A DNA stretch of 64,000 nucleotides from the NCBI GenBank assembly GCA_017302795.1, contig JAFLCB010000005.1:207668-271667 (forward strand), in the 5' to 3' direction. Positions 50,028 through 64,000 of this stretch are shown piece by piece (within the stretch, counting starts at the first letter, position 1; every line of letters starts with the position of its first letter). The notes below the pieces were generated by a model, which was not told where the DNA came from, made no database searches, and worked only from the letters and a program-made list of their open reading frames with translations. The position numbers and the translations under genes are program-made. This DNA comes from Deltaproteobacteria bacterium. Lineage in GTDB: Bacteria > Bdellovibrionota > Bdellovibrionia > Bdellovibrionales > JAMPXM01.

Positions 50028-53000
50028 GTGTTCAAAATATTGAAAATTTGCTCCGCTAGAAACTTCGTCGTCACCTTTGGCGCGGTCCTCTTGTTCCTGA
50101 CTGGATGTACGAAAAAAAATGAAGTCGCACGTGTGATGTTGATTATGCCGAATGCAATCTCAGCAAAACCGACGGTCACTAAAACCAAAAATCCTGTTTC
50201 GCAGTCCGTTTCGGCATCGAGTGAAGACGAGCCCGAGTGGAACACGAGTCTCAACCCTTCGCTGGGATCCGACATCAACTGTTTTGCAGTTTTCGTGGGC
50301 GGGCCGAATCTCGCAGGGAACACTTGTTCAGTTTCAGACAACGGAGCGGCCCGCACGATTGCGTTCGGACCCAATATTGGATTTGTTCCCAGTGGCGCAG
50401 TGATCAAAGTTGATGTTCCAGCTGGCGCCGATCGCGTTTTCCATGTTGTCGGCCTTAAATCCGCTACCGCTGCGGCCTGTGCAAATTATCGCGGAACCAC
50501 CATGGACACGTCCAATTTGTCCGAACCATTTTTGATCGCTTCCCAACGCGCCGACATTCCTGCCGGAGAAAGTTCGCTCAACATCACCGCCTCACTTGAC
50601 GTGAATAAGAAAATCTCAACCTGCAGTTTTGTTCAAAGTGGCGGGACCGGCGGCGGCGGCACGACGATTTCGTTTGGCGATCGCCGCGATGGCAGGATGA
50701 CTTTAACCGGTGGAAACATAGCTAACTTTGATCTCGGAACGGACCCCTACAATTTAACTTTTCCGGGCTACTCGTTTTCACCCAACTCAGGTGGGGTTGC
50801 TCCAACCAAATATTTTAGTTCCAGCGTTCGGGTCACAAATGTCCTGAGAATTGGCGAGAATGCTGGAAAAGCTTTAACGACACCTGCTGTAACTACAAAC
50901 CGATTTGAAGTCGGCGACGAAGTGCTGTGGCATGTGTCTGGCGGCAACGCGAACCCGGGCCCACCCGATGATCCTACTAGAGGAGCCTGCGGTGGCGATC
51001 TTTACCTAGGAAAGTTTGGTTTCGCAAAAATCGCCGGCATTAGCATCGGCGGAACACTCATCATTCTTGATAAGTCGATTTCACAAACACCCGCTTTGGT
51101 AAAAAACGAAAACCTCACGGCCGCGGTCTCAAATCAATCTGGCTTTTGTAGAATTGCTTTAACTCGCGTGCCGAATTTTGAAGAGATCAACGTCGGCACT
51201 GGTAGCACACTGAATTTTTATGGCGTTTCGTATGACTCCGAAAATGGCACCGGTGGCACGCTGGTCATGCGCGCCAAACGAATTGTTGCCGATGGAAGTC
51301 TATTATTAAACGGTTCCGGCCAAGGATACCAAGGTGGCATAGGTGCACTATCTGCCGGTGGAACGGTTTGGGGCTACAACGGACCATTGGGTGGTTCTTC
51401 GTATGGCAGTGGCGGCGGGACTACTGCGACTCTTGGTGGAGGCGGCGGAGCTGGCGGCGGCGAAGGCGGCATGATGGGATCCGCCTTTGGTTCAATGGGC
51501 GGTCTGCCGCTGACTCACGGAATGGAATATTCCTACACTTCCATTTCGGCTGGAACCAATCATACTTGTGGCGTCAGCACGGACGGATCTCTTCGATGTT
51601 TCGGCGATGGATCTTTGGGACAGCTGGGTGCCGGATTTCAGCCTTTTTCAAGAAACGATCCGCAGCAGGTCAGTGGAAATTTGACCTTTAAATCGGCCTC
51701 GAGCGGTCAGAATCATACATGTGCTATTGGTTTTGACGATCGAGCCTATTGCTGGGGTCAAGGTGTCTTCGGAAAATTGGGTGATGGCACAGCGACAAGT
51801 CGGTACTTTCCAACGATGGTTCCAGATGCGACGACCTATTCCCAAATCAGTGCAAGTTCACGCGGCGATCACACTTGCGCCATCACGCGAGACACAAAGA
51901 AACTTCGCTGCTGGGGATTCAACGCGTCTTACCAGATAGGTGACGGATCGACTAATGACCGACCAAGCCCAGTCGATGTCGATTCCGCTACCAATTACAA
52001 AATGGTCTCAGCGGGCGGGAACCACACCTGCGCTATCACCGACGCCGGACAATTGAAATGCTGGGGTGAAAATGCAGAAAGTCAACTGGGCGATGGCACG
52101 ACAAACACACTAACAACGCCGACAATTATCAACGCCGGTACATCTTATAAACGCGTTTCTGCCGGGCAATATCACACATGCGGAATTACCAGCACAGATC
52201 AATTGCGCTGCTGGGGCGCAGGATTCGAAGGACAGCTTGGCGTCGGCGACATCACTGGTCGAACAACACCGACGCCTGTCAACGGTGGCCTCACCTACGG
52301 CGACGTTTCTGTTGGAACGTATCATACCTGTGCCGTGACTCTGGCGAATCAAGTACGTTGCTTTGGTGACAACGCTGCTGGACAAATTGGTGATACATCT
52401 AACACGGACCGGCTCGAGCCGACGCCCATTACTGGGACGAATACATTCGCTAAAGTTTCAGTGGGTGGCTCACATAGCTGTGCAATTACAGTTTCCGGTC
52501 AGCCGATGTGTTGGGGATACGGCACCCTGGGTCAGCTTGGGAACGGTTATACATCGACGCTGAATTATCCATCTAAAGTGCGAAACCAATCTTTGTCATT
52601 GCCGTTTGCCGACAGCAAATCTTATCACGGTGGAGGCGGAGGCGCTGGCAGCACACCGGGTGGCCGCGGCGGCGGTATTGTTCTTTTGATTGCGAAAGAA
52701 ATCCTTGGCTCCGGAAGTGTGCAAGTCTATGCACAGGGTGATAATGGCGTCAGCGGTGCCTATCCATCCGGAGGCGGAGGCGGAGGCGTCATCGGATTGA
52801 TGTCGCGAAGCCTGACCGTTGATTCCATAAGTCTCGACACGAGCGGCGGTGATGGAGTTGGCGGAAGTTTTGAGTCGGCAGGTGGGGGCGGCGGAATTGT
52901 CGACGTTCAGCTTTGCAGTGCAAGTTCAAGCACAACTCCTTCGGCAAATGTCGAAGGTGGCTTTGGTGGATCGCCAGCCCTCAGGCATGGCGCAAATGGT

Positions 53001-53045
53001 TCCGCGAAGCGAACAAACTTCACCGCACTTTGCACAGCGGACTGA
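50028..53045 (+). CDS. large lipoprotein: seven RCC1 (beta-propeller) repeats embedded in a glycine-rich beta-helix-like scaffold
   Basis: GTG start. Lipobox LLFLTG|C. Seven blades are marked by GTNHTCGV, GQNHTCAI, GDHTCAI, GNHTCAI, QYHTCGI, TYHTCAV and GSHSCAI, each followed by ..CWG/CFG.N..GQLGDG. They are flanked by GGGGAGGGEGG and GGGGGAGSTPGGRGGGIVLLIAKE...GGGGGGVIGL...AGGGGGIVDV. Confidence 0.8.
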   Translation: MFKILKICSARNFVVTFGAVLLFLTGCTKKNEVARVMLIMPNAISAKPTVTKTKNPVSQSVSASSEDEPEWNTSLNPSLGSDINCFAVFVGGPNLAGNTCSVSDNGAARTIAFGPNIGFVPSGAVIKVDVPAGADRVFHVVGLKSATAAACANYRGTTMDTSNLSEPFLIASQRADIPAGESSLNITASLDVNKKISTCSFVQSGGTGGGGTTISFGDRRDGRMTLTGGNIANFDLGTDPYNLTFPGYSFSPNSGGVAPTKYFSSSVRVTNVLRIGENAGKALTTPAVTTNRFEVGDEVLWHVSGGNANPGPPDDPTRGACGGDLYLGKFGFAKIAGISIGGTLIILDKSISQTPALVKNENLTAAVSNQSGFCRIALTRVPNFEEINVGTGSTLNFYGVSYDSENGTGGTLVMRAKRIVADGSLLLNGSGQGYQGGIGALSAGGTVWGYNGPLGGSSYGSGGGTTATLGGGGGAGGGEGGMMGSAFGSMGGLPLTHGMEYSYTSISAGTNHTCGVSTDGSLRCFGDGSLGQLGAGFQPFSRNDPQQVSGNLTFKSASSGQNHTCAIGFDDRAYCWGQGVFGKLGDGTATSRYFPTMVPDATTYSQISASSRGDHTCAITRDTKKLRCWGFNASYQIGDGSTNDRPSPVDVDSATNYKMVSAGGNHTCAITDAGQLKCWGENAESQLGDGTTNTLTTPTIINAGTSYKRVSAGQYHTCGITSTDQLRCWGAGFEGQLGVGDITGRTTPTPVNGGLTYGDVSVGTYHTCAVTLANQVRCFGDNAAGQIGDTSNTDRLEPTPITGTNTFAKVSVGGSHSCAITVSGQPMCWGYGTLGQLGNGYTSTLNYPSKVRNQSLSLPFADSKSYHGGGGGAGSTPGGRGGGIVLLIAKEILGSGSVQVYAQGDNGVSGAYPSGGGGGGVIGLMSRSLTVDSISLDTSGGDGVGGSFESAGGGGGIVDVQLCSASSSTTPSANVEGGFGGSPALRHGANGSAKRTNFTALCTAD

Positions 53046-56053: not shown

Positions 56054-56791
56054 TTAGAAATAGATGTAGAATCCACCCTGAACGACAAGCCCAGAGGTAT
56101 TTGAAGAAACGCCACCCGACGATGTCGATGCGTATCGATAAACGGCATCACCGCGAATCGCGACGGAATTTCCTAGAGGAAACCACTTCAATTGTCCACC
56201 GCCCTGGAAGGTCATTACTGTTCCAGAGACTTCTGCGTTTCCAACCGTTGACGACAAACTGCCAAACTTGCCTTCAGCACCTAGGCCGTAAACAAGTTCA
56301 GTGCCTGGCGTATTCGCAACGAGGTTGTAGTCGAAAAATCCACCCGCCTCAATAACTCGAGAGCTGCTGCCGGTCGCAGATACGTAGGTCAAAGTGCCTA
56401 ACCCGCCGTATTCCATGTCGCCAGCGTTCCAGCCATATCGAGCTGTAACACCAAGGCCGGTCGTGCTCGACGAGCTTCCTGATGTCGAACGATTTTCAAG
56501 CTCCGCAGATCCACCGATAATCATCGCGCGCGAATCGCTGCCGCCGCCACCGCCCATCGAGCTTTCGCCGCCACCGCCCAAATCAATCATTTGACCCACG
56601 CGTGGACGAGCATCATCTGGAAACTGAACGATCGCCTTTTTTCCAGAGACTTTAACAACTTTCGCTTGCTGTGCTGAAGCTACAGAAGACAAGCCCACGG
56701 CGGTGAAGCCCACGGTCAACCCTGTTAAAATCATAAAATTAAAGTAACGTGCGGCGTTTCGACCCGCGCGTGATGTCGAGCTAACTTCCAT
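56054..56791 (-). CDS. small outer-membrane beta-barrel protein
   Basis: Signal peptide (LTVGFTAVGLSSVASA|QQ), a Gly-rich linker, alternating strands, and the canonical terminal ...VVQGGFYIYF. Confidence 0.65.
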   Translation of the reverse strand: MEVSSTSRAGRNAARYFNFMILTGLTVGFTAVGLSSVASAQQAKVVKVSGKKAIVQFPDDARPRVGQMIDLGGGGESSMGGGGGSDSRAMIIGGSAELENRSTSGSSSSTTGLGVTARYGWNAGDMEYGGLGTLTYVSATGSSSRVIEAGGFFDYNLVANTPGTELVYGLGAEGKFGSLSSTVGNAEVSGTVMTFQGGGQLKWFPLGNSVAIRGDAVYRYASTSSGGVSSNTSGLVVQGGFYIYF

Positions 56792-56888: not shown

Positions 56889-57137
56889 CTATGTTCCGCT
56901 TGGTCGGCGAGGTGTCTTGCTCATCACCAATTCGGCGATCGCGACCAACGTTAGAAATTTCTGGCTGGCGATTTCATCAAGGCCAAATTCTATAGAAAAC
57001 TTTTTTTCCAGCCGAACGGCGAGTACAATCAAATCCAAGGAAGCAAGCTCCAAACCATCTCGCCAATTGATTCCCGCTTCCTCAATACATGCGCTTACCA
57101 GCTTAATAGTTTCTTCGACGCTCAAATCACCTGACAT
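56889..57137 (-). CDS. acyl/peptidyl carrier protein (DltC/AlmF-like)
   Basis: 82 aa. The phosphopantetheine-site context GLELASLDLIVLAVRLEKKF aligns with the (D)SLD..ELV..LE helix-2 motif of carrier proteins. Confidence 0.6.
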   Translation of the reverse strand: MSGDLSVEETIKLVSACIEEAGINWRDGLELASLDLIVLAVRLEKKFSIEFGLDEIASQKFLTLVAIAELVMSKTPRRPSGT

Positions 57138-57189: not shown

Positions 57190-57828
57190 ATGGGTGAGAC
57201 GGGTACTTCGTGTGAAACCGAATTGTATTTTCAGCGCTTAAAAGCATTGCGCCAAGTTGTTCTATCGACTGCCACCCCTAGCGCCGATGTAGCGGCAACC
57301 ACCGCCAGGGAACTGGTGTCCAAGTATGTTGAGTTGATGTCCCGGACTGACGAAGGACCACGTCCGAATGTGGTATCGAGGCAGGCGGAGTTTTCGGGTG
57401 ACGTTCACGGCCTGTGGCTTTTGAATGCGGAAGCTCGATACTTTTGCATGGTCTCAAAAGAATACGGCCGCTCCTCGGCGCAAATTTGCCATATCCTAAA
57501 TTTGGTGATCAAAAAGTTCCCTGCTGGAATCACTATCAGTGAACCAGAATCAAATTCACTTGTACCAGTGCTGCTATTGAATCTCGCGCGTATTCAGCGC
57601 GAGGCAGGCGAATTAGTTTCCGCCCGGTTTCGCTCCGCCCAGCTGGCCGAATTTATCGGAAATCCGTCCAAAATATTTAACCTCACGTCTTTTCCGCTAG
57701 AAGTTTCTTCGCAAGCCGGAGAAATCGGCGACTGGTGCCGTCGAAATCTAACTAACTCGAGTCGCCACTATATTCTACGCAAACTAGTAAATTTCGACCA
57801 ATCTTTGGCCCAAAGAAAGCATGAATAA
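57190..57828 (+). CDS. hypothetical cytoplasmic protein, translationally coupled to the adenylating enzyme
   Basis: 212 aa with no TM helix and no motif. Its last 8 nt overlap the ATG (57821) of the AMP-ligase gene. Confidence 0.5.
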   Translation: MGETGTSCETELYFQRLKALRQVVLSTATPSADVAATTARELVSKYVELMSRTDEGPRPNVVSRQAEFSGDVHGLWLLNAEARYFCMVSKEYGRSSAQICHILNLVIKKFPAGITISEPESNSLVPVLLLNLARIQREAGELVSARFRSAQLAEFIGNPSKIFNLTSFPLEVSSQAGEIGDWCRRNLTNSSRHYILRKLVNFDQSLAQRKHE

Positions 57829-59287
57829 AAACCTACTAATCCGACTTTTCGAAAACAGAATATCAATGGGCAGCCAAAGCGCCCTTCTCGATTTTGATTC
57901 AGGTTGCGACTTAACCTGGTCAGAGATTTGGGCGACCAGTCTATCGGTGTCTCAGAAAGCGCGAGAAGCGGCGCCAGACAGGAAGTACTTCGTCTGCGTG
58001 ACAAAAGACCCGACACTTTCCTGTCTTTTTTTATTCGGTTCTTGGCTAAGCAACGTGACTCCGATTTTGGTCAACCCAAATTTCACCAGGTCGGAAATTG
58101 AAAATGTTGAAGCTTCTTTGTGCGCCCAGGGAGAAGGCAGCCATTCTTGGCTATGTGACGAGACCACAAATGAAAAAATCAAGACCGCCCGCCGAGACCG
58201 CAGCGCGCCCATCGTAAAATTTGATATCGCCTCTTTGAAGAACAAACCGGCTGAAGCCGAAGTGGCGAGGGAGAGCCTCCTTCCTCTGACCTCGAAAGAA
58301 ATAGATGCGCTGGGTTTGTTCACTTCAGGATCGACGCAAATACCAAAACTCGTGAAGTTCTCTCATCACAATCTGCTCCGATCAGCGGAGATCGAAATTG
58401 AAAACGACAAACGTCTTCAACAGACGACTGTCGTGAATCTTCGACCGCACTTTACATCTGGTGGATGTAACTCGCTTTGGCCGTGGGTATACGGCGGAGG
58501 GCGAATGATATTTTCGAACGCGGCTGCGCAGCTTCCTAATGCGAGAATTATCCGAAACCTTCTGTTCAAAACAAAGCCAGAGCTGCTGATCTGTTCACCG
58601 AGCATGCTGAACGTCCTCGCCGAATCCAATGACGGCCATCCACTGTCGGATGTGCCGCTGCCAACCTACTTTGGAGGCATGTCGGTCAGCGAAACCGTTT
58701 TAACTTCACTGGTTTCGATGGGTCTATGTCCCTGGATGAGATACGGAATGACAGAAGTTGGTCACATCATTTCCAAAATCGATTTAACCCAAGGTCCGCC
58801 CTATCCAGAAAAAAGCGATGTCGGACAGGTCTACCGGGGCCTTCACGCGAAGTCTGACTCCGGTTATCTCGTATTTCGGGGCGACGGAATTGCGAGGTCA
58901 TGTGTGGCCAAGGGGGCCGACTTTGTCAGTGACGATCGAGGTGAAGTAAGAGGTGCTCGGATAATTCTTCGCGGGAGAGAAAACAAAATCGCTAACGTTA
59001 ACGGGTTTCGATTTCCAATCGCTGAGGTTCAAAGGGCCATGGAGTCTCACCGTGAACTTAAACATGTTCTCGCGCTAGCGATTCCAAATGGGTTCAAAGG
59101 CGACGAAATTGTTGTTTTCTTTCAGCCGAACGAGCCAGGCGGAGTTGACGAAATTGCACTGCGACTATCTATGCAAAATCTGTTGGTCAACTTCAAGCGG
59201 CCAAACAGGTACATCCTGGTTCATGCTTGGCCCTTCACTGCAAACGGAAAAGTAAACCAAGCAGCTTTGATGGATCTACTAAAGTAG
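57821..59287 (+). CDS. stand-alone adenylate-forming enzyme (ANL superfamily; DltA/AlmE-like carrier-protein ligase)
   Basis: Core motifs: A3 LFTSGSTQIPKLV, A5 YGMTEVG, A7 SDDRG, A8 LRGRENKIANVNGFRFPIAEV, A10 NGKVNQAAL. No condensation or thioesterase domain. Confidence 0.8.
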   Translation: MNKNLLIRLFENRISMGSQSALLDFDSGCDLTWSEIWATSLSVSQKAREAAPDRKYFVCVTKDPTLSCLFLFGSWLSNVTPILVNPNFTRSEIENVEASLCAQGEGSHSWLCDETTNEKIKTARRDRSAPIVKFDIASLKNKPAEAEVARESLLPLTSKEIDALGLFTSGSTQIPKLVKFSHHNLLRSAEIEIENDKRLQQTTVVNLRPHFTSGGCNSLWPWVYGGGRMIFSNAAAQLPNARIIRNLLFKTKPELLICSPSMLNVLAESNDGHPLSDVPLPTYFGGMSVSETVLTSLVSMGLCPWMRYGMTEVGHIISKIDLTQGPPYPEKSDVGQVYRGLHAKSDSGYLVFRGDGIARSCVAKGADFVSDDRGEVRGARIILRGRENKIANVNGFRFPIAEVQRAMESHRELKHVLALAIPNGFKGDEIVVFFQPNEPGGVDEIALRLSMQNLLVNFKRPNRYILVHAWPFTANGKVNQAALMDLLK

Positions 59288-60409
59288 TTCGATCTTCCCG
59301 CCTCCGGGCGTATCGACCATATAGTGAGGCAAGTTGATTTCAGTTTTCCAGTCTATACCGCTGCGTAGTTCTCTGATCATCTTCACATCATCGGCGATCA
59401 GAGTTCTAAAGTGCGACGACCCAAAAGTAAGGTCACAATGATAGGCATAGTAAGGCTGTACGCCCATCAGCAGAAGCTTTTGATTCAAAAGTCTTAGCAC
59501 TTCGGGCCGATCGTTGATTCCCTTAAGTATGACCGTGTGGTTGTTAACGACACAGCCCGCATTCCGCAGCATGCGGCACGATCGTAGCGCTTCGTTCGAG
59601 CATTCGTCAGGATGATTGAAGTGCGTATGAATATAGAGTGGCTGATATTTCTTTAAAACTTCCAGCAGCGAGTCCGTAACACGAAACGGTAGCGTAACAA
59701 GGTTTCGAGTTCCCAGGCGAACGATCTCAACATGTTCGATGCTGCGGGCTTTTTCGAGAAGCTCGTCCAACTGTTTATCAGCAAACGAGAAGATGTCACC
59801 GCCACTAAGAATAATTTCACGCAGACTTGGATTTTTTCGAATGTGGTCTAACGCATCGTTAATCTGCTTTTGTTGCAGGGCAGACCCCGCATCTGACACT
59901 TTTCTTTTTCGGGTACAGAAGCGGCAATACATTGCACAGTGATGCGTTGTGTACAGCATCGCACGGTCAGGATACCGATGCGTCAACCCGGGAACCGGCA
60001 TCATTTGGTCTTCTTTGGGAAAATCTCTAAGTTCGTATTCAAGTTGAATATTTTCGGCGCTCGATGGCATTCCCTGCCGGCGAATAGGGCAATCGGGATT
60101 CTCGTGATCCATCAGCGAAAAATAATAGGGAGTAATTGAAAAGTTGAAGTCAGTCTGAGTACGCCGGATGTCCTCGGCCAGCGCGAAAATGTCTAAGCCT
60201 TTGACGTTTTCTAGTTTCAACGCAGCTTCTAGCTTTTCGATCGAATCAATCCTGTTTCGTAACTGCCACGGCCACGAGGACCAATCTTGCGCAGATACGT
60301 CCTGCCAGATCTTTAGAGGTCTGGTTGATCGGAATTCGAGTTTCTCGCTCATTGTCCCATTATCCCGCATTTTCGAAAGTGCGCAAATTAAAGTCCGACT
60401 AGCGAACAA
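59279..60409 (-). CDS. kamA: lysine 2,3-aminomutase family radical-SAM/PLP enzyme (KamA/EpmB-like), apparently intact
   Basis: HRYPDRAMLYTTHHCAMYCRFCTRKRK (CxxxCxxC), SGGDIF (SAM site), HTHFNHPDE, GINDRPEV, YHCDLTFGSSHFRT and VDTPGGGK. Both Asp that bind the lysine epsilon-amine and the PLP-Lys of C. subterminale KamA (aligned from memory) are retained. The start is TTG 60409, or ATG 60370 or 60352. Confidence 0.85.
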   Translation of the reverse strand: MFASRTLICALSKMRDNGTMSEKLEFRSTRPLKIWQDVSAQDWSSWPWQLRNRIDSIEKLEAALKLENVKGLDIFALAEDIRRTQTDFNFSITPYYFSLMDHENPDCPIRRQGMPSSAENIQLEYELRDFPKEDQMMPVPGLTHRYPDRAMLYTTHHCAMYCRFCTRKRKVSDAGSALQQKQINDALDHIRKNPSLREIILSGGDIFSFADKQLDELLEKARSIEHVEIVRLGTRNLVTLPFRVTDSLLEVLKKYQPLYIHTHFNHPDECSNEALRSCRMLRNAGCVVNNHTVILKGINDRPEVLRLLNQKLLLMGVQPYYAYHCDLTFGSSHFRTLIADDVKMIRELRSGIDWKTEINLPHYMVDTPGGGKIELL

Positions 60410-61673
60410 GTCCTAGTACCGATTTATAGATTCCAAGAATGATGATCGTAGAAATCCATCGTACATAGTCCAGGACCGTCCACCGCCCGATTGATTTTTC
60501 ATGTTGATGCTCGCCAAGGCGGCCCTGCCCAGGAATCAATAAAAACACAATCAAGAATCCAATCATTGCCAAGCCCGTCACAGGTGGACGTTCTAAATCT
60601 GCTCTGTACCCAACTTGGACTCCAACAAGAACCGCATAAGAAGCTATGGCCGCAATAAAGTAGGACATTGTAGTCGAGTATCCACTGCGAACGAGCCAAA
60701 GTCCCAATGGCCGGACGCCAACATCGACGACGAAATCTCGCACGTAGGAGCTGTGGCGTCGCAGGTAGTCCAGCGGCGAACGCGCCAATAACGGCAAATG
60801 CATATCATATTTCAACTCGTAACCAAGAAACCGGCCTAGCGAGATTTGGAAAGCCATTCCCGCCGTTTGCTGAAAATAAATGATCACTAGCCAGTACAAA
60901 CCCAGTGCCAAGTGAACAGCAGCAAGGTCAACACCGGTTTTTCCCCCCGGAAGAAAAAAAAGATTTCGCCAAAAATACTCGTTAGCCAAACTAAAAATAC
61001 CCATCAAAAAAATTCCCCACAACCCCATTCCAAGGATTCTGAGGCTCTCGGCGGGTATTAACGAACGGCCTTGGGCTTTCGATTTGTGGAAATACGAGTA
61101 TTGCACGTATTGAATTTGTCCTGGCAGTAGAAAAAAAATCGGACAGAACAGGTATTCCAAAAACTCGATTAGGCCGTGTTCCTGAAATCTCAAATAGACT
61201 CGATGATCAACAATCCAACTTAAAAATCGCATCGCAAAGCAGGTTTTAAAGAGAATCAAAACTGTCAGCTGTGGCCCCGTCAATTGAGCTTTCCATGCAT
61301 AGAGAATCAATGGAATATACGCGAGCAGAATCCCCACTGACACGGCTACCCCCACCGGCAGCTGACCTTGGGCGCGACGGCGGGCGAAATAAAACAACGA
61401 GATCGAAACAAATATGAACGCGAGTGCAGCCATCGCATTCATTGAGACCAGCACGAAACTAAGCAAAGACAAAGCAACACCCGTCGTCCGACGTGCCGCC
61501 AAAGTTTGATTCGGTATAATTTCAGGAAGAAATCGAATGATCAGGACAACAAGTGGCAGAACCGCAATTGTCATCGGAAACGAGCTGAAAGTCGTAGCTG
61601 ATGAAATAGATCGAAAGTGAAAACTTTCACCGCAAATGTATGCAACACTGGCGGCGGCCGCAGAAAGCAACAA
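60399..61673 (-). CDS. divergent MBOAT-family membrane protein (DltB/AlgI-like), copy 1
   Basis: About 10 TM helices. LIEFLEYLFCPIFFLLPGQI parallels the MBOAT F.EF.SY.FFFP....GPI block. ...LGRFLGYELKYDMHLPLLARSPLDYLRRHSSYVRDF parallels FG...P.NF..P..A.S...FWRRWH.SLS.W.RDY, with the catalytic-type His retained. The N-terminus is uncertain (TTG 61673 or ATG 61574). Confidence 0.6.
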   Translation of the reverse strand: MLLSAAAASVAYICGESFHFRSISSATTFSSFPMTIAVLPLVVLIIRFLPEIIPNQTLAARRTTGVALSLLSFVLVSMNAMAALAFIFVSISLFYFARRRAQGQLPVGVAVSVGILLAYIPLILYAWKAQLTGPQLTVLILFKTCFAMRFLSWIVDHRVYLRFQEHGLIEFLEYLFCPIFFLLPGQIQYVQYSYFHKSKAQGRSLIPAESLRILGMGLWGIFLMGIFSLANEYFWRNLFFLPGGKTGVDLAAVHLALGLYWLVIIYFQQTAGMAFQISLGRFLGYELKYDMHLPLLARSPLDYLRRHSSYVRDFVVDVGVRPLGLWLVRSGYSTTMSYFIAAIASYAVLVGVQVGYRADLERPPVTGLAMIGFLIVFLLIPGQGRLGEHQHEKSIGRWTVLDYVRWISTIIILGIYKSVLGLVR

Positions 61674-61707: not shown

Positions 61708-62484
61708 CTAGCGCTCGCGATAAGAAAACTCCTGATTTCGATAGTTCCTGAAGATATAGGTTCCGTCTTTGTAGGACTTTATATATTCCGGAACTAGCGC
61801 TGTACCTGCTTCTTGCGCCAAAGATACATGAAATGAAACAGCCAAGCCGGATGTCCACCCCCGTAGTGTCTCTAAAATTTCAATTCCTTTTTCTTGTTTC
61901 ACAAAAAGCCCTGCCTTTTTAGAAATCGAGCACTCTGAAAACAAAACATAAGGCCGAACCCTCATCATCAACAGCTTGTGATTGAGGTCCATGATTGTCT
62001 TAGGATCATCATTGATGCCGGCCAGCAAGGTGGTCTGGTTCGAAATAACAAAGCCGGCGCTCATCAATCGGTCGCAAGCGACCAGCGCCTCACTGGTGCA
62101 TTCGGCCGGATGCTGGAAACCAGAAATCAAGGTCTTTTGCTCGAGGGGTGGGTTGTTGAAATCCAAAGTCGCCACACACATCGGGCTTGTCTGCAACAAT
62201 CGGCTTTTAAAACAGCTAACTCCGACAACTTCACAGGGAACTTTTTCGAAAGACGTCGACGCTTCCGCGAGGAAACCTCTGTATTCTCTACCCTTCGCGG
62301 TAAGTGACTGAATCTCATTGAGCAGCGAAAAACCGTATGGGCTATCAAAATCCCAATCAGCTTCTTTTGTTGGCTGTGCATGCCTTTGCCAATTTGAATC
62401 TACCCAGGTCTCTTCCGAAACAGATTCAAAGGATTCGTGCCGAATCAGCGGATGGAATTTCTTCGAGATAGATGGATAGACCAT
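61708..62484 (-). CDS. degenerate KamA-like protein lacking the radical-SAM cluster motif, SAM site and PLP lysine
   Basis: The C-terminal half is homologous to the KamA next door: FQHPAECTSEALVACDRLMSAGFVISNQTTLLAGINDDPKTIMDLNHKLLMMRVRPY versus FNHPDECSNEALRSCRMLRNAGCVVNNHTVILKGINDRPEVLRLLNQKLLLMGVQPY. There is no CxxxCxxC and no GGD/E; CDL is replaced by ECSI and VDTPGGGK by VSLAQEAG. The start is taken at ATG 62484. Confidence 0.6.
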   Translation of the reverse strand: MVYPSISKKFHPLIRHESFESVSEETWVDSNWQRHAQPTKEADWDFDSPYGFSLLNEIQSLTAKGREYRGFLAEASTSFEKVPCEVVGVSCFKSRLLQTSPMCVATLDFNNPPLEQKTLISGFQHPAECTSEALVACDRLMSAGFVISNQTTLLAGINDDPKTIMDLNHKLLMMRVRPYVLFSECSISKKAGLFVKQEKGIEILETLRGWTSGLAVSFHVSLAQEAGTALVPEYIKSYKDGTYIFRNYRNQEFSYRER

Positions 62485-62522: not shown

Positions 62523-63734
62523 CTAAAAACCAGAACGAATAGAAAATATCACCGAGTATCCTGCGATCAAAATTAGGAAGGTCAGAACTCTCGAACGTAC
62601 CGAGCCATCGCCAAAAGCCCAGTTTCGAAAACCACGAGGAATGATTTCCGGTAGCACTGTCATGCAAAAGAAGATTCCAGTAATCACGAGTCCAACCGCC
62701 GTGCTCCGATCGTTCCTATAAGGCTGGAACCCGATCTGGGTCAGCGTGAAGGCCGAAAAGATCGCCATCAGTACGATGAGGCGCCCCCAGATGAGCCCTG
62801 AATTTCTTCGGAACGCCGCCGTCATCAGGGGCTTCACTAGAATTTCAAGGATGAACTCTCGAACATAAAAATGCATTCGTTTCCAGTAGTCCCCGGGTGA
62901 AGTCGCACGCCAGGGTGCGTTCATATCTAATGAAATCTGAAATCCGCTGCAGCTTAAAAAGGAAATTTGAACCATCACATTCGCCGCGTGAAAGATAATG
63001 GCTGTCGCGACGCTTAGAATACCGCCCACCACACTGGAGCCAACGAATTCAAAAGCTGAGAGATTTTTAAAATAGGCCGTCTGCAAAAAACCATAAGCCA
63101 CAAGAAGAGTCAGCCCAAAGGTGAAGGTAGCAACTGTTTTATTGTGAGTCTTTATCTCGTTCATTTTCCCAGAAAAGAACCGACTTGGCGTTAAAACATT
63201 GAGATCGTTTGTGAACATAAAAAATGCTGGGTGGAAAAAGAATTCCACAAATTGATCTAAACTGTAGCTTCGTCCGTAAACTCGAACTGACACAATCCAA
63301 GCAAATAGCTTGATTCCCCAAGAAGTATGAATCATCAACACCAGCCATGCAAACGGCGCTGATTTGTCGATATAGAACGATCGATTCGCCCAAAACAGTA
63401 GCGGAATCAGAATCAGAATCAGTAGCGCGGTCAACCACCTTGCCTGCGGCTTCAGCTGAGCCACAAAGAATGCCACTGCAAGAATTAGAAACCCTGCAAT
63501 CAACGAATAGAGGCTTTGAACGAAAATGAAAGGTCCAAGCAGATACAACCAATGACGGACTTTGATAGGAAGAACTGACGAGGCCAGCAGAAAGACCGGA
63601 ATCGTAGCTAGCGCCGATAGCACTTCAGCTGAATCCAAGCTGAAGGCGGAAAAGTACTTTAGTTCTTTCGGTAAAAGAAAAAAGAGCGTCCAAAGTACTA
63701 CAGCTTGAAAAAGTAGAAACTGGCGACTAGTCAT
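62523..63734 (-). CDS. divergent MBOAT-family membrane protein (DltB/AlgI-like), copy 2
   Basis: A paralogue of 60399..61673: LDQFVEFFFHPAFFMFTN and ...GFQISLDMNAPWRATSPGDYWKRMHFYVREF, with the same His-containing block. About 10 TM helices. ATG at 63734. Confidence 0.6.
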   Translation of the reverse strand: MTSRQFLLFQAVVLWTLFFLLPKELKYFSAFSLDSAEVLSALATIPVFLLASSVLPIKVRHWLYLLGPFIFVQSLYSLIAGFLILAVAFFVAQLKPQARWLTALLILILIPLLFWANRSFYIDKSAPFAWLVLMIHTSWGIKLFAWIVSVRVYGRSYSLDQFVEFFFHPAFFMFTNDLNVLTPSRFFSGKMNEIKTHNKTVATFTFGLTLLVAYGFLQTAYFKNLSAFEFVGSSVVGGILSVATAIIFHAANVMVQISFLSCSGFQISLDMNAPWRATSPGDYWKRMHFYVREFILEILVKPLMTAAFRRNSGLIWGRLIVLMAIFSAFTLTQIGFQPYRNDRSTAVGLVITGIFFCMTVLPEIIPRGFRNWAFGDGSVRSRVLTFLILIAGYSVIFSIRSGF

Positions 63735-63782: not shown

Positions 63783-63995
63783 TCATTCCGCGGACTTCAT
63801 ATTCACAGAGTTTTTTTCAATATATCGGAGCCCTGACGCGGTAAGCAGATTTAGTTCGCAGACGTCGTTGCCGTAGACCAGGCTGGCGTCTGCAACAACT
63901 GTGTATTTTATTAATCGCGAAAGTTTAATGCAGTCGTCGTCACTTTTAAACTCGATTTGATACTGCGATGTTTTTCGTGCCTGAGACGAAAACAT
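63783..63995 (-). CDS. small hypothetical protein at the head of the MBOAT/KamA gene string (may extend beyond the window)
   Basis: 70 aa from the ATG at 63995. No in-frame stop lies between that ATG and the window edge, so the ORF could be longer. No motif. Confidence 0.3.
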   Translation of the reverse strand: MFSSQARKTSQYQIEFKSDDDCIKLSRLIKYTVVADASLVYGNDVCELNLLTASGLRYIEKNSVNMKSAE

Positions 63996-64000
63996 ACTAA

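Follow-up and report, generated by a model that had tools for sequence, protein, structure and literature searches.

The closest described relatives of the protein treated here belong to the KamA family of radical S-adenosylmethionine (SAM) enzymes, among them lysine 2,3-aminomutase (LAM), which is reportedly an obligate domain-swapped dimer whose active-site channels each abut the partner subunit at one end. In EpmB (YjeK), a short member of the same family, the chain ends soon after the lysine that binds pyridoxal phosphate (PLP); the protein is a complete and active radical SAM enzyme and acts together with EpmA on elongation factor P (EF-P). Dead paralogues of oligomeric enzymes commonly partner a live paralogue, and in prozymes, such as the trypanosomatid S-adenosylmethionine decarboxylase (AdoMetDC) prozyme and the Dph1-Dph2 radical-SAM heterodimer, an impaired paralogue is kept under selection together with a live one. 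The genetic surroundings described below recall a further system, Dlt, in which DltC docks on the cytoplasmic tunnel of DltB, the latter having His289 and His336 as active residues and needing a conformational change to open this tunnel for DltC (PMC11035591). Here we analysed a window of 64,000 nucleotides (nt) from a Deltaproteobacteria bacterium of the Bdellovibrionota (assembly GCA_017302795.1, contig JAFLCB010000005.1, positions 207,668 to 271,667) and describe a 258-amino-acid (aa) protein encoded in it, dKamA, which is a predicted pseudoenzyme branch of the KamA family and lies close to the gene of an apparently active KamA, KamA357. The protein, its three segments and this neighbour are located in the window as follows.

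61708..62484, minus strand: dKamA, 258-aa predicted catalytically dead KamA-derived protein; open reading frame (ORF) with an ATG start and the stop codon at 61708-61710
62317..62484, minus strand: dKamA residues 1-56, remnant of the KamA N-terminal helical domain with W..WQ and PY..SL, from motif alignments
62128..62316, minus strand: dKamA residues 57-119, remodelled linker, the cluster-loop columns being gapped in 27/27 family members
61711..62127, minus strand: dKamA residues 120-258, KamA half-barrel and first part of LAM_C with invariant HPxEC, LLMMRVRPY and LRGWTSGLAV, from alignments, fold and Pfam
59279..60352, minus strand: KamA357, KamA-family radical SAM enzyme, apparently active, with CAMYCRFC, SGGD, both Asp and GGGK

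The dKamA ORF is a 100% match to the deposited NCBI entry 'hypothetical protein J0L82_09920' (P0001) of a Deltaproteobacteria/Bdellovibrionota metagenome-assembled genome, and its relatives are named 'hypothetical protein' or, wrongly, 'lysine 2,3-aminomutase' in the databases. Since the 258-aa form begins as its orthologues do (M-x-[HY]-P-x-[IV]-x-[KR]-K-F), this start was preferred over that of a 319-aa version (TTG at 62667), which overlaps the upstream gene, has extra residues without KamA similarity and was not used. BLASTP aligned dKamA with the neighbouring KamA357 at 47% identity over 66 aa (E 1e-13), and phmmer aligned residues 120-256 with residues 228-366 of LAM (2A5H; E 3.5e-20), the Clostridium subterminale lysine 2,3-aminomutase being the sole match in the PDB. 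The NCBIfam models for glutamate, lysine and arginine 2,3-aminomutases fell on the same stretch with E values of 1e-27 to 1e-31 (TIGR04368, E 1.9e-31), all far under their cut-offs; on TIGR00238, dKamA scored 53 bits and thus did not reach the curated family cut-off of 199 bits. Pfam gave a weak LAM_C match only and none to Radical_SAM, as it did for 17 of 19 family members. Judged from these alignments, the homology between dKamA and KamA is well beyond chance. The initial annotation had aligned dKamA with the C-terminal half of the neighbouring KamA and proposed pairwise and profile comparisons, and these confirm a KamA-like C-terminal region of about 140 residues, but N-terminal helical motifs are kept as well, and the protein is thus not merely the C-terminal half.

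In the N-terminal segment, RHESFESVSEETWVDSNWQ of dKamA is the counterpart of LAM RYELFKDVSDADWNDWRWQ, and DSPYGFSLL that of ITPYYLSLI. This similarity to KamA is statistically weak in the window protein (E 0.07); in a less degenerate member, P0012, residues 2-66 match residues 13-97 of the full-length KamA P0013 with an E value of 2e-5. Throughout the family, about 125-160 KamA residues, covering barrel beta1 to beta3 with CxxxCxxC, THRYPDR and SGGD, are swapped for a linker of 45-65 residues, and at the C-terminal end the first 56 positions of LAM_C are present. Since the N-terminal KamA motifs are kept, dKamA is best described, on its alignments, as a whole-length KamA derivative that has lost the radical-SAM core internally and not as a C-terminal fragment.

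For an audit of the catalytic residues, we took the alignment columns with a conservation of 88% or more in 26 catalytic KamAs and compared all of them with the 27 dKamA family members. The block running from C-P-x-R-x-Q through THRYPDR, CxxxCxxC-T-R-x-R and R...SGGD is deleted, with gaps in nearly all of the 27 members and, for the cluster-loop columns, in every one of them (27/27). The CxxxCxxC motif is absent from the window protein and from all 27 members, no member that was checked matched Pfam Radical_SAM, and SGGD falls in columns that are gaps in the window protein and lack conservation across the family. The Arg residues of the cluster loop that are conserved in KamAs have been deleted too, and one of them we take to be Arg134, which binds the substrate carboxylate in LAM. 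LAM Asp293 is replaced by Ser186 (HMMER alignment) or Cys185 (MAFFT alignment) and LAM Asp330 by Leu222, with Ser221 one position off, and both positions are variable in the family. In place of the GGGGK loop, dKamA carries AQEAGT, which is two residues shorter and has no lysine, leaving Thr or a gap in the PLP-lysine column; a lysine is found at exactly this column in 8 of the 27 members, and at or beside it in part of the family. The initial annotation had listed the missing CxxxCxxC motif, the missing GGD SAM site and the replacement of GGGK by QEAG, all of which hold, and had reported both substrate Asp residues as changed to Ser, of which the loss stands and the replacement by Ser is approximately right.

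The KamA-conserved positions that are substituted and variable in dKamA comprise H244, Y302, D307 (LAM Asp293), G311, H314, R316, T317, D347 (LAM Asp330), P349 and the GGGK loop, and those retained look structural (HPxE, several Gly and Asn residues, L..LL, V.PY, LRG.T and one Pro). No conserved Cys triad able to rebuild a cluster was found across the dKamA family. A new Cys-based metal site was considered and rejected, as C84, C91, C103 and C185 are not conserved and C129 and C137 are inherited from catalytic relatives. In comparison with LAM/KamA (2A5H, TIGR00238), dKamA is homologous in the N-terminal helical motifs and over LAM residues 228-366, with a fold that superposes, but it is without the [4Fe-4S] motif, GGD, THRYPDR and the substrate Asp residues, its PLP lysine is lost or variable, and at least about 100 barrel residues are deleted. 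By sequence, dKamA is a pseudoenzyme, homologous to an enzyme family, with the catalytic residues gone and predicted to be non-catalytic.

A search of 5.8 billion proteins recovered short dKamA homologues of 210-283 aa that range from 74% down to 31% identity and share one architecture, forming about 27 clusters at 90% identity with intact ORFs. In an exhaustive profile search of 1.84 billion representatives, some 17 dKamA representatives (50% clusters) scored 185-358 bits, as against at most 184 bits for full-length KamAs. Thirty-two columns are invariant among 19 members (down to 31% identity), including HP.EC, LN.KLLMMR.RPY and LRGWTSGLAV, and in a neighbour-joining tree of 161 shared columns with 100 bootstraps the family was monophyletic in 85/100 replicates, or in 98/100 if one fusion module is allowed inside it. 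The ratio of non-synonymous to synonymous substitution rates (dN/dS) between the window dKamA and a 74%-identical orthologue was 0.106 (0.15 in the N-terminal and 0.066 in the C-terminal half), and a second orthologue pair gave 0.055 (0.041 in the C-terminal half), ratios that are rough because dS is near or at saturation in both pairs; the neighbouring cluster genes gave 0.06-0.23. The N-terminal half is thus the fastest-evolving one, and both halves are constrained. Nucleotide differences were distributed 45/37/120 over the three codon positions, and in three strain-level assemblies dKamA differed by 1-2 changes, all of them synonymous.

An AlphaFold2 model of dKamA, based on an alignment of 50 sequences, was confident over the whole chain, with a predicted local distance difference test score (pLDDT) of 93 and a predicted template-modelling score (pTM) of 0.89. 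Foldseek matched it to 2A5H (E 1.3e-14, 178 columns, 2.8 A), with other radical SAM enzymes at E 0.01 or worse. No radical-SAM half is hidden upstream of dKamA: the intergenic gap there measures 38 nt, and independent assemblies show the same gene structure. We conclude that dKamA is under purifying selection and is neither a decaying gene nor an artefact. The retained pseudo-enzyme of the initial annotation is thereby borne out in about 27 intact clusters, and the lines of inquiry it had suggested agree: dN/dS pointed to purifying selection in both orthologue pairs (0.106 and 0.055), the structural model was confidently KamA-like, and neither disrupted orthologues nor an intact N-terminal half came to light.

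Full-length KamA P0013 is closer to dKamA (51% identity over 138 aa, E 7e-44) than the neighbouring KamA357 is. P0013-like KamAs form a large subfamily in Bdellovibrionota, Myxococcota and Gemmatimonadota that has LLMMRVRPY and LRGWTSGLAVPH in common with dKamA, and scans of genome and metagenome contigs for these conserved peptides returned 160 loci, 159 of which were ordinary full-length or edge-truncated KamAs, the only new dKamA locus being L004. The KamA357-type neighbours form their own clade (95/100 bootstraps), adjacent to that of dKamA. These relationships indicate that dKamA descended from another KamA subfamily than its neighbour and is not a recent duplicate of KamA357. One further protein, P0125 (568 aa; L090:1374-3080), consists of a complete KamA (CAMYCRFC, SGGD, GGGGK) fused to a second KamA module that has neither the cluster motif nor GGD and that falls in the tree as sister to, or inside, the dKamA clade; it is represented by a single cluster on a 3-kb contig. 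Two other KamA-like proteins, P0171 (248 aa) and P0174 (309 aa), have also lost the radical-SAM core internally, with the Asp residues and the GGGGK loop intact, and may be recent independent deletions, pseudogenes or assembly artefacts.

KamA357, in turn, looks catalytically complete by its motifs, matching LAM from residue 4 to 335 (E 7e-92) and passing TIGR00238 with 296 bits (cut-off 199). Gene callers and orthologues agree on the 357-aa start, and a 376-aa ORF version begins at an upstream TTG. Its subfamily comprises 22 clusters of 343-363 aa that are at least 60% identical, the next relatives being 51% identical and 379-400 aa long. All 22 clusters end in ...DTPGGGK[IV]EL, 4-6 residues past the PLP lysine (5 in KamA357), and Pfam LAM_C is missing from all 22. 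Where other KamAs and dKamA have LRGWTSGLAVP and RVRPYY, the KamA357 type has LH..DW....PHY and GVQPYY; in the nearest full-length KamA relatives, the C-terminal piece and all these motifs stand in one chain. KamA357 resembles EpmB in ending soon after the PLP lysine (with an NCBIfam hit), but dKamA, unlike EpmB, is predicted to be non-catalytic, and its context is Dlt-like with no EF-P genes in the cluster.

The other genes of the cluster that fall within the window are the following.

60399..61673, minus strand: mem424, divergent DltB-like membrane protein of MBOAT (membrane-bound O-acyltransferase) fold, start codon uncertain, by AlphaFold2 with Foldseek and synteny
62523..63734, minus strand: mem403, paralogue of mem424 and upstream neighbour of dKamA in this lineage, by BLASTP and hhalign
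63783..64000, minus strand: mem417, 3' end (70-aa ORF) at the window edge, the complete 417-aa gene being L084:7449-8702
57821..59287, plus strand: AMP488, adenylate-forming ligase (Pfam AMP-binding, E 8e-21), syntenic in all contexts
57190..57828, plus strand: p212, protein without known domain, fused to the ligase N-terminus in other lineages
56889..57137, minus strand: ACP82, small carrier-protein-like product with weak PP-binding/ACP matches below cut-offs, syntenic

Gene order was compared over 13 loci from about ten lineages. One of them, L084, duplicates the window, to which it is identical over 12,293 nt in an independent assembly, and runs 8.5 kb beyond the window's edge of the cluster; L174 ends inside its mem424-type gene, and its dKamA protein is that of L175. 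Read across this extension, the full cluster comprises a GntB/fatty acid (FA)-desaturase-like gene, an HDAC-like gene, a GNAT gene, ACP86, the ligase AMP510, a PLP decarboxylase and MBOAT443, the only Pfam-positive MBOAT of the cluster, followed by mem417, mem403, dKamA, mem424 and KamA357, then AMP488 and p212 on the other strand, and ACP82 and p245. A mem424-type gene lies directly downstream of dKamA in every context examined, its called start overlapping the dKamA stop by 14-50 nt in six loci, and the order dKamA, mem424-type, KamA357-type recurs in 11 of the 13 loci. In several lineages the operon consists of dKamA, the mem424-type gene, KamA and a carrier protein gene with a divergent p212-ligase fusion. 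This fusion places the p212 and AMP488 matches in one gene of 696-703 aa in L089, L091, L173 and L176, and p212 of the window is a separate gene that overlaps the AMP488 start by 8 nt.

Upstream of dKamA, mem403 is the adjacent gene in the window, L001, L002, L004, L087, L003 and L092, and a ligase or p212-type gene takes its place in L089, L091, L173, L175 and L176. In four of these (L089, L091, L173, L176) the mem403-type gene directly follows MBOAT443 and closes the decarboxylase/ligase/MBOAT443 run, and no mem403-type gene was found on the L175 contig. Since the upstream gene varies and mem424 is constant, we assign dKamA to a 'beta-amino-acid module' with mem424 and regard the adjacency of mem403 as lineage-specific. 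A class of 'type B' clusters without KamA, with L003 and L092 as members, was refuted for L003, where a KamA357-type protein (P0300) is encoded elsewhere on the same 26,755-nt contig, together with P0047; L092 is too short to tell. The dKamA family (about 27 clusters), the mem424 family (21) and the KamA357 type (22) are all rare, are set off from other KamAs by sharp score gaps and have contigs in common. On account of their similar cluster counts and shared contigs, the three families share one distribution, and KamA, which is truncated in the KamA357 type and distributed as dKamA is, is therefore at least as likely a partner of dKamA.

The flanking membrane proteins mem424 and mem403 had no match in Pfam (PF03062) or NCBIfam. 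They are paralogues of each other (BLASTP E 1e-19), and their similarity to the canonical MBOAT443 is confined to the surroundings of the signature motif (BLASTP E 2e-4 and 5e-3). Comparison of the family profiles with this canonical MBOAT of the cluster by hhalign gave E values of 1.3e-5 for mem403 and 1e-3 for mem424 over a local match of only 40 columns, and the MBOAT identity was thus settled by structure. The AlphaFold2 model of mem424 (pLDDT 85, pTM 0.85) retrieved MBOATs as all of its top 24 Foldseek matches in the PDB, with DltB structures 6BUG (E 1.4e-6, TM 0.66) and 8JEM at the head (TM 0.63-0.68) and PORCN, HHAT, ACAT and DGAT1 after DltB. The His of the W-R-R-W-H-type motif, His306 in mem424 and His288 in mem403, falls in the motif that aligns with the cluster's canonical MBOAT and is invariant in each family; the second active-site position is His249 in mem403, again family-invariant, and Gln in mem424. 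By predicted fold, mem424 and mem403 are MBOATs, which agrees with the initial annotation in placing dKamA next to an MBOAT gene, even if these flanking genes are Pfam- and NCBIfam-negative. The third membrane protein, mem417, was considered as a fourth MBOAT and rejected, being not MBOAT-like and having only weak MauE/DoxX matches; it is a 417-aa membrane protein conserved in the cluster, with two invariant Cys residues in its C-terminal part.

The cluster thus encodes a Dlt-like set of adenylating ligase, carrier protein and MBOAT together, the carriers scoring weakly. With the Dlt system it has in common adenylating ligases (DltA-like hits), small carrier proteins and DltB-like MBOAT-fold proteins. 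It differs from that system in having three MBOAT-fold paralogues and two ligase/carrier pairs, in containing a radical-SAM aminomutase, a PLP decarboxylase, a GntB-like hydroxylase and a dead KamA, and in its Gram-negative host lineage, the Bdellovibrionota. DltD and DltX did not appear among the domain hits on the cluster genes, although no search was aimed at them.

As to the role of dKamA, we tentatively favour, with a probability of about 40%, that it is a dead protomer that partners KamA357 inside this Dlt-like module. We infer the physical partners, the substrate and the acceptor of the module from gene order, sequence and models. In dKamA, an internal deletion has removed the [4Fe-4S]/SAM core and substitutions have removed the ligands of PLP and substrate, while the half-barrel, the N-terminal helices and the first C-terminal strands are kept; according to the proposal, it would act through protein-protein contact in a module of dKamA, mem424, KamA357, an adenylating ligase and a carrier protein. 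It might pair with KamA357 in place of a second catalytic subunit and make up for what KamA357 is missing, namely the C-terminal segment and the surfaces LRGWTSGLAVP and RVRPY; in this way, the aminomutase may be kept at the cytoplasmic face of mem424. After adenylation and transfer to the carrier protein, the beta-amino acid (probably beta-lysine, a plausible product for the KamA of the cluster) would go through the MBOAT to reach an acceptor in the envelope. Pairing with KamA357 is favoured because the losses in KamA357 and dKamA are complementary when compared with their single-chain relatives, and because P0125 naturally fuses a complete KamA to a cluster-less KamA module. It is further supported by the shared distribution of the three rare families and their conserved gene order, by the domain-swapped LAM dimer, in which the partner subunit reportedly closes each active-site channel, and by the way in which dead paralogues of oligomeric enzymes typically associate with the live one. 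The arrangement would resemble that of prozymes, whose interactions have been shown experimentally, whereas we infer that of dKamA. A stronger form of the proposal, in which dKamA and KamA357 are complementary halves of an obligate heteromeric radical-SAM aminomutase docked on a DltB-like MBOAT, forming a membrane metabolon that makes a beta-amino acid (probably beta-lysine) and exports it, in the form of an acyl group, to an acceptor that is part of the envelope or of an exopolysaccharide, is in our view unlikely.

Several observations weigh against a pairing with KamA357. The linkage of dKamA is tightest to mem424 and not to KamA, as judged from the start/stop overlaps of 14-50 nt in six loci, and the adjacency of dKamA and mem424 survives in L003, where KamA is more than 10 kb away (L092 is uninformative here). 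EpmB is also short past the PLP lysine, yet active alone, and KamA357 therefore need not rely on a partner. P0125, as a single cluster on a 3-kb contig, may represent an independent event, and a mirror-tree comparison of distance matrices, meant to decide between KamA357 and mem424 as partner, gave no specific signal, dKamA correlating least with everything, in part as some high-scoring segment pairs span the C-terminal half only. The main rival explanation, a possible though somewhat unlikely one that draws on the tighter and more persistent gene adjacency, makes dKamA a cytoplasmic accessory subunit of mem424 that acts independently of KamA and might help the carrier protein to dock at the cytoplasmic tunnel, or gate its access there. 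The mem424-type gene follows dKamA directly in all contexts, with a start that often overlaps its stop, and does so also in the two loci without an adjacent KamA (L003 and L092); the mem424 and dKamA families are equally rare; and the conformational change of DltB for DltC leaves room for an accessory factor (PMC11035591). However, recruitment of a KamA scaffold for such a role is left without explanation, the module of canonical MBOAT443 and mem403 has no such accessory, and the complementary losses of KamA357 as well as the P0125 fusion point to KamA. The two roles are not exclusive, since dKamA could tether KamA357 to mem424.

A residual pocket would offer yet another role, that of a small-molecule sensor or of a new radical-independent activity, with the adenosyl part of SAM or 5'-deoxyadenosine, PLP or an amino acid as ligand. 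KamA-inherited polar residues are indeed invariant (H125, E128, N149, N158, R175, R177, Y179, R208, T211, S212), and part of the family retains a lysine at or next to the PLP-lysine column (8/27 at the exact column), but that lysine is not conserved family-wide, the channel residues H244, Y302, D307, H314, R316, T317, D347 and the GGGK loop are replaced and variable, and the N-terminal half that would complete the pocket evolves fastest, which makes this reading improbable. The same replacements bear on the proposal of the initial annotation, a beta-lysine-binding chaperone or regulator for 'MBOAT copy 2', which we take as the upstream mem403. This proposal could draw on mem403 lying directly upstream in the window, L001, L002, L004, L087, L003 and L092, and on the plausibility of beta-lysine as product of the cluster's KamA. 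However, beta-lysine binding in the ancestral pocket finds no support, as the Asp pair and the PLP lysine are replaced at positions that vary in the family and the cluster-loop Arg residues are deleted, and the upstream gene is not mem403 in L089, L091, L173, L175 and L176, five contexts in which mem424 remains constant downstream; we therefore consider it very unlikely. That the gene is decaying, or that an intact enzyme is masked by a frameshift or an assembly error, would be suggested by the loss of motifs alone, and this is refuted by intact ORFs of the same architecture in about 27 clusters and several independent assemblies, by dN/dS of about 0.05-0.1, by the confident predicted fold and by the mere 38 nt to the upstream gene.

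In the searchable literature, we found no description of the dKamA family, of its cluster or of any dead KamA paralogue, and the dKamA family would be the first case of a conserved pseudoenzyme family with a radical-SAM aminomutase as its ancestor. It also marks a rare cluster of Dlt-like type. Three products of this cluster have an MBOAT fold, two of which escape Pfam, and it further encodes two ligase/carrier pairs as well as an aminomutase, a decarboxylase and a GntB-like hydroxylase; Bdellovibrio-like bacteria probably use it to modify their envelope with unusual basic amino acids. If the complementary losses of dKamA and KamA357 do reflect pairing, they would provide a clean natural case of a homo-oligomeric radical enzyme turned into a live/dead heteromer. 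If the heteromer is part of a metabolon, the cluster would represent a new cationic envelope-decoration pathway in predatory Bdellovibrionota, and dKamA the first pseudoenzyme subunit known for a radical-SAM aminomutase.

Some of the remaining products of the region were also inspected. About 8 kb past the window end at 64000, the 'FA_desaturase' protein of the cluster (L084:434-1315) best matches GntB, the guanitoxin L-arginine gamma-hydroxylase, with an NCBIfam E value of 3.5e-25 that is below the cut-off; since GntB is the best match, hydroxylation of a basic amino acid is hinted at, with a basic amino acid rather than a lipid as the putative substrate. The AMP510 ligase and the PLP decarboxylase (L084:3377-6113) best match the 'exosortase A system-associated' models TIGR03098 and TIGR03099, again below cut-offs, and these matches would link the cluster to cassettes associated with exopolysaccharide loci. 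At the other end of the cluster, p245 (56054-56791, minus strand), which is syntenic in L001, L002 and L004, is rich in Gly and Ser, has a hydrophobic segment at its N-terminus, ends in ...GGFYIYF and looks by its sequence like an outer-membrane beta-barrel protein. The product of a gene just outside the cluster (50028-53045, plus strand) is 1005 aa long and has a lipoprotein-like N-terminus, stretches rich in Gly, and RCC1/WD40_RLD repeats.

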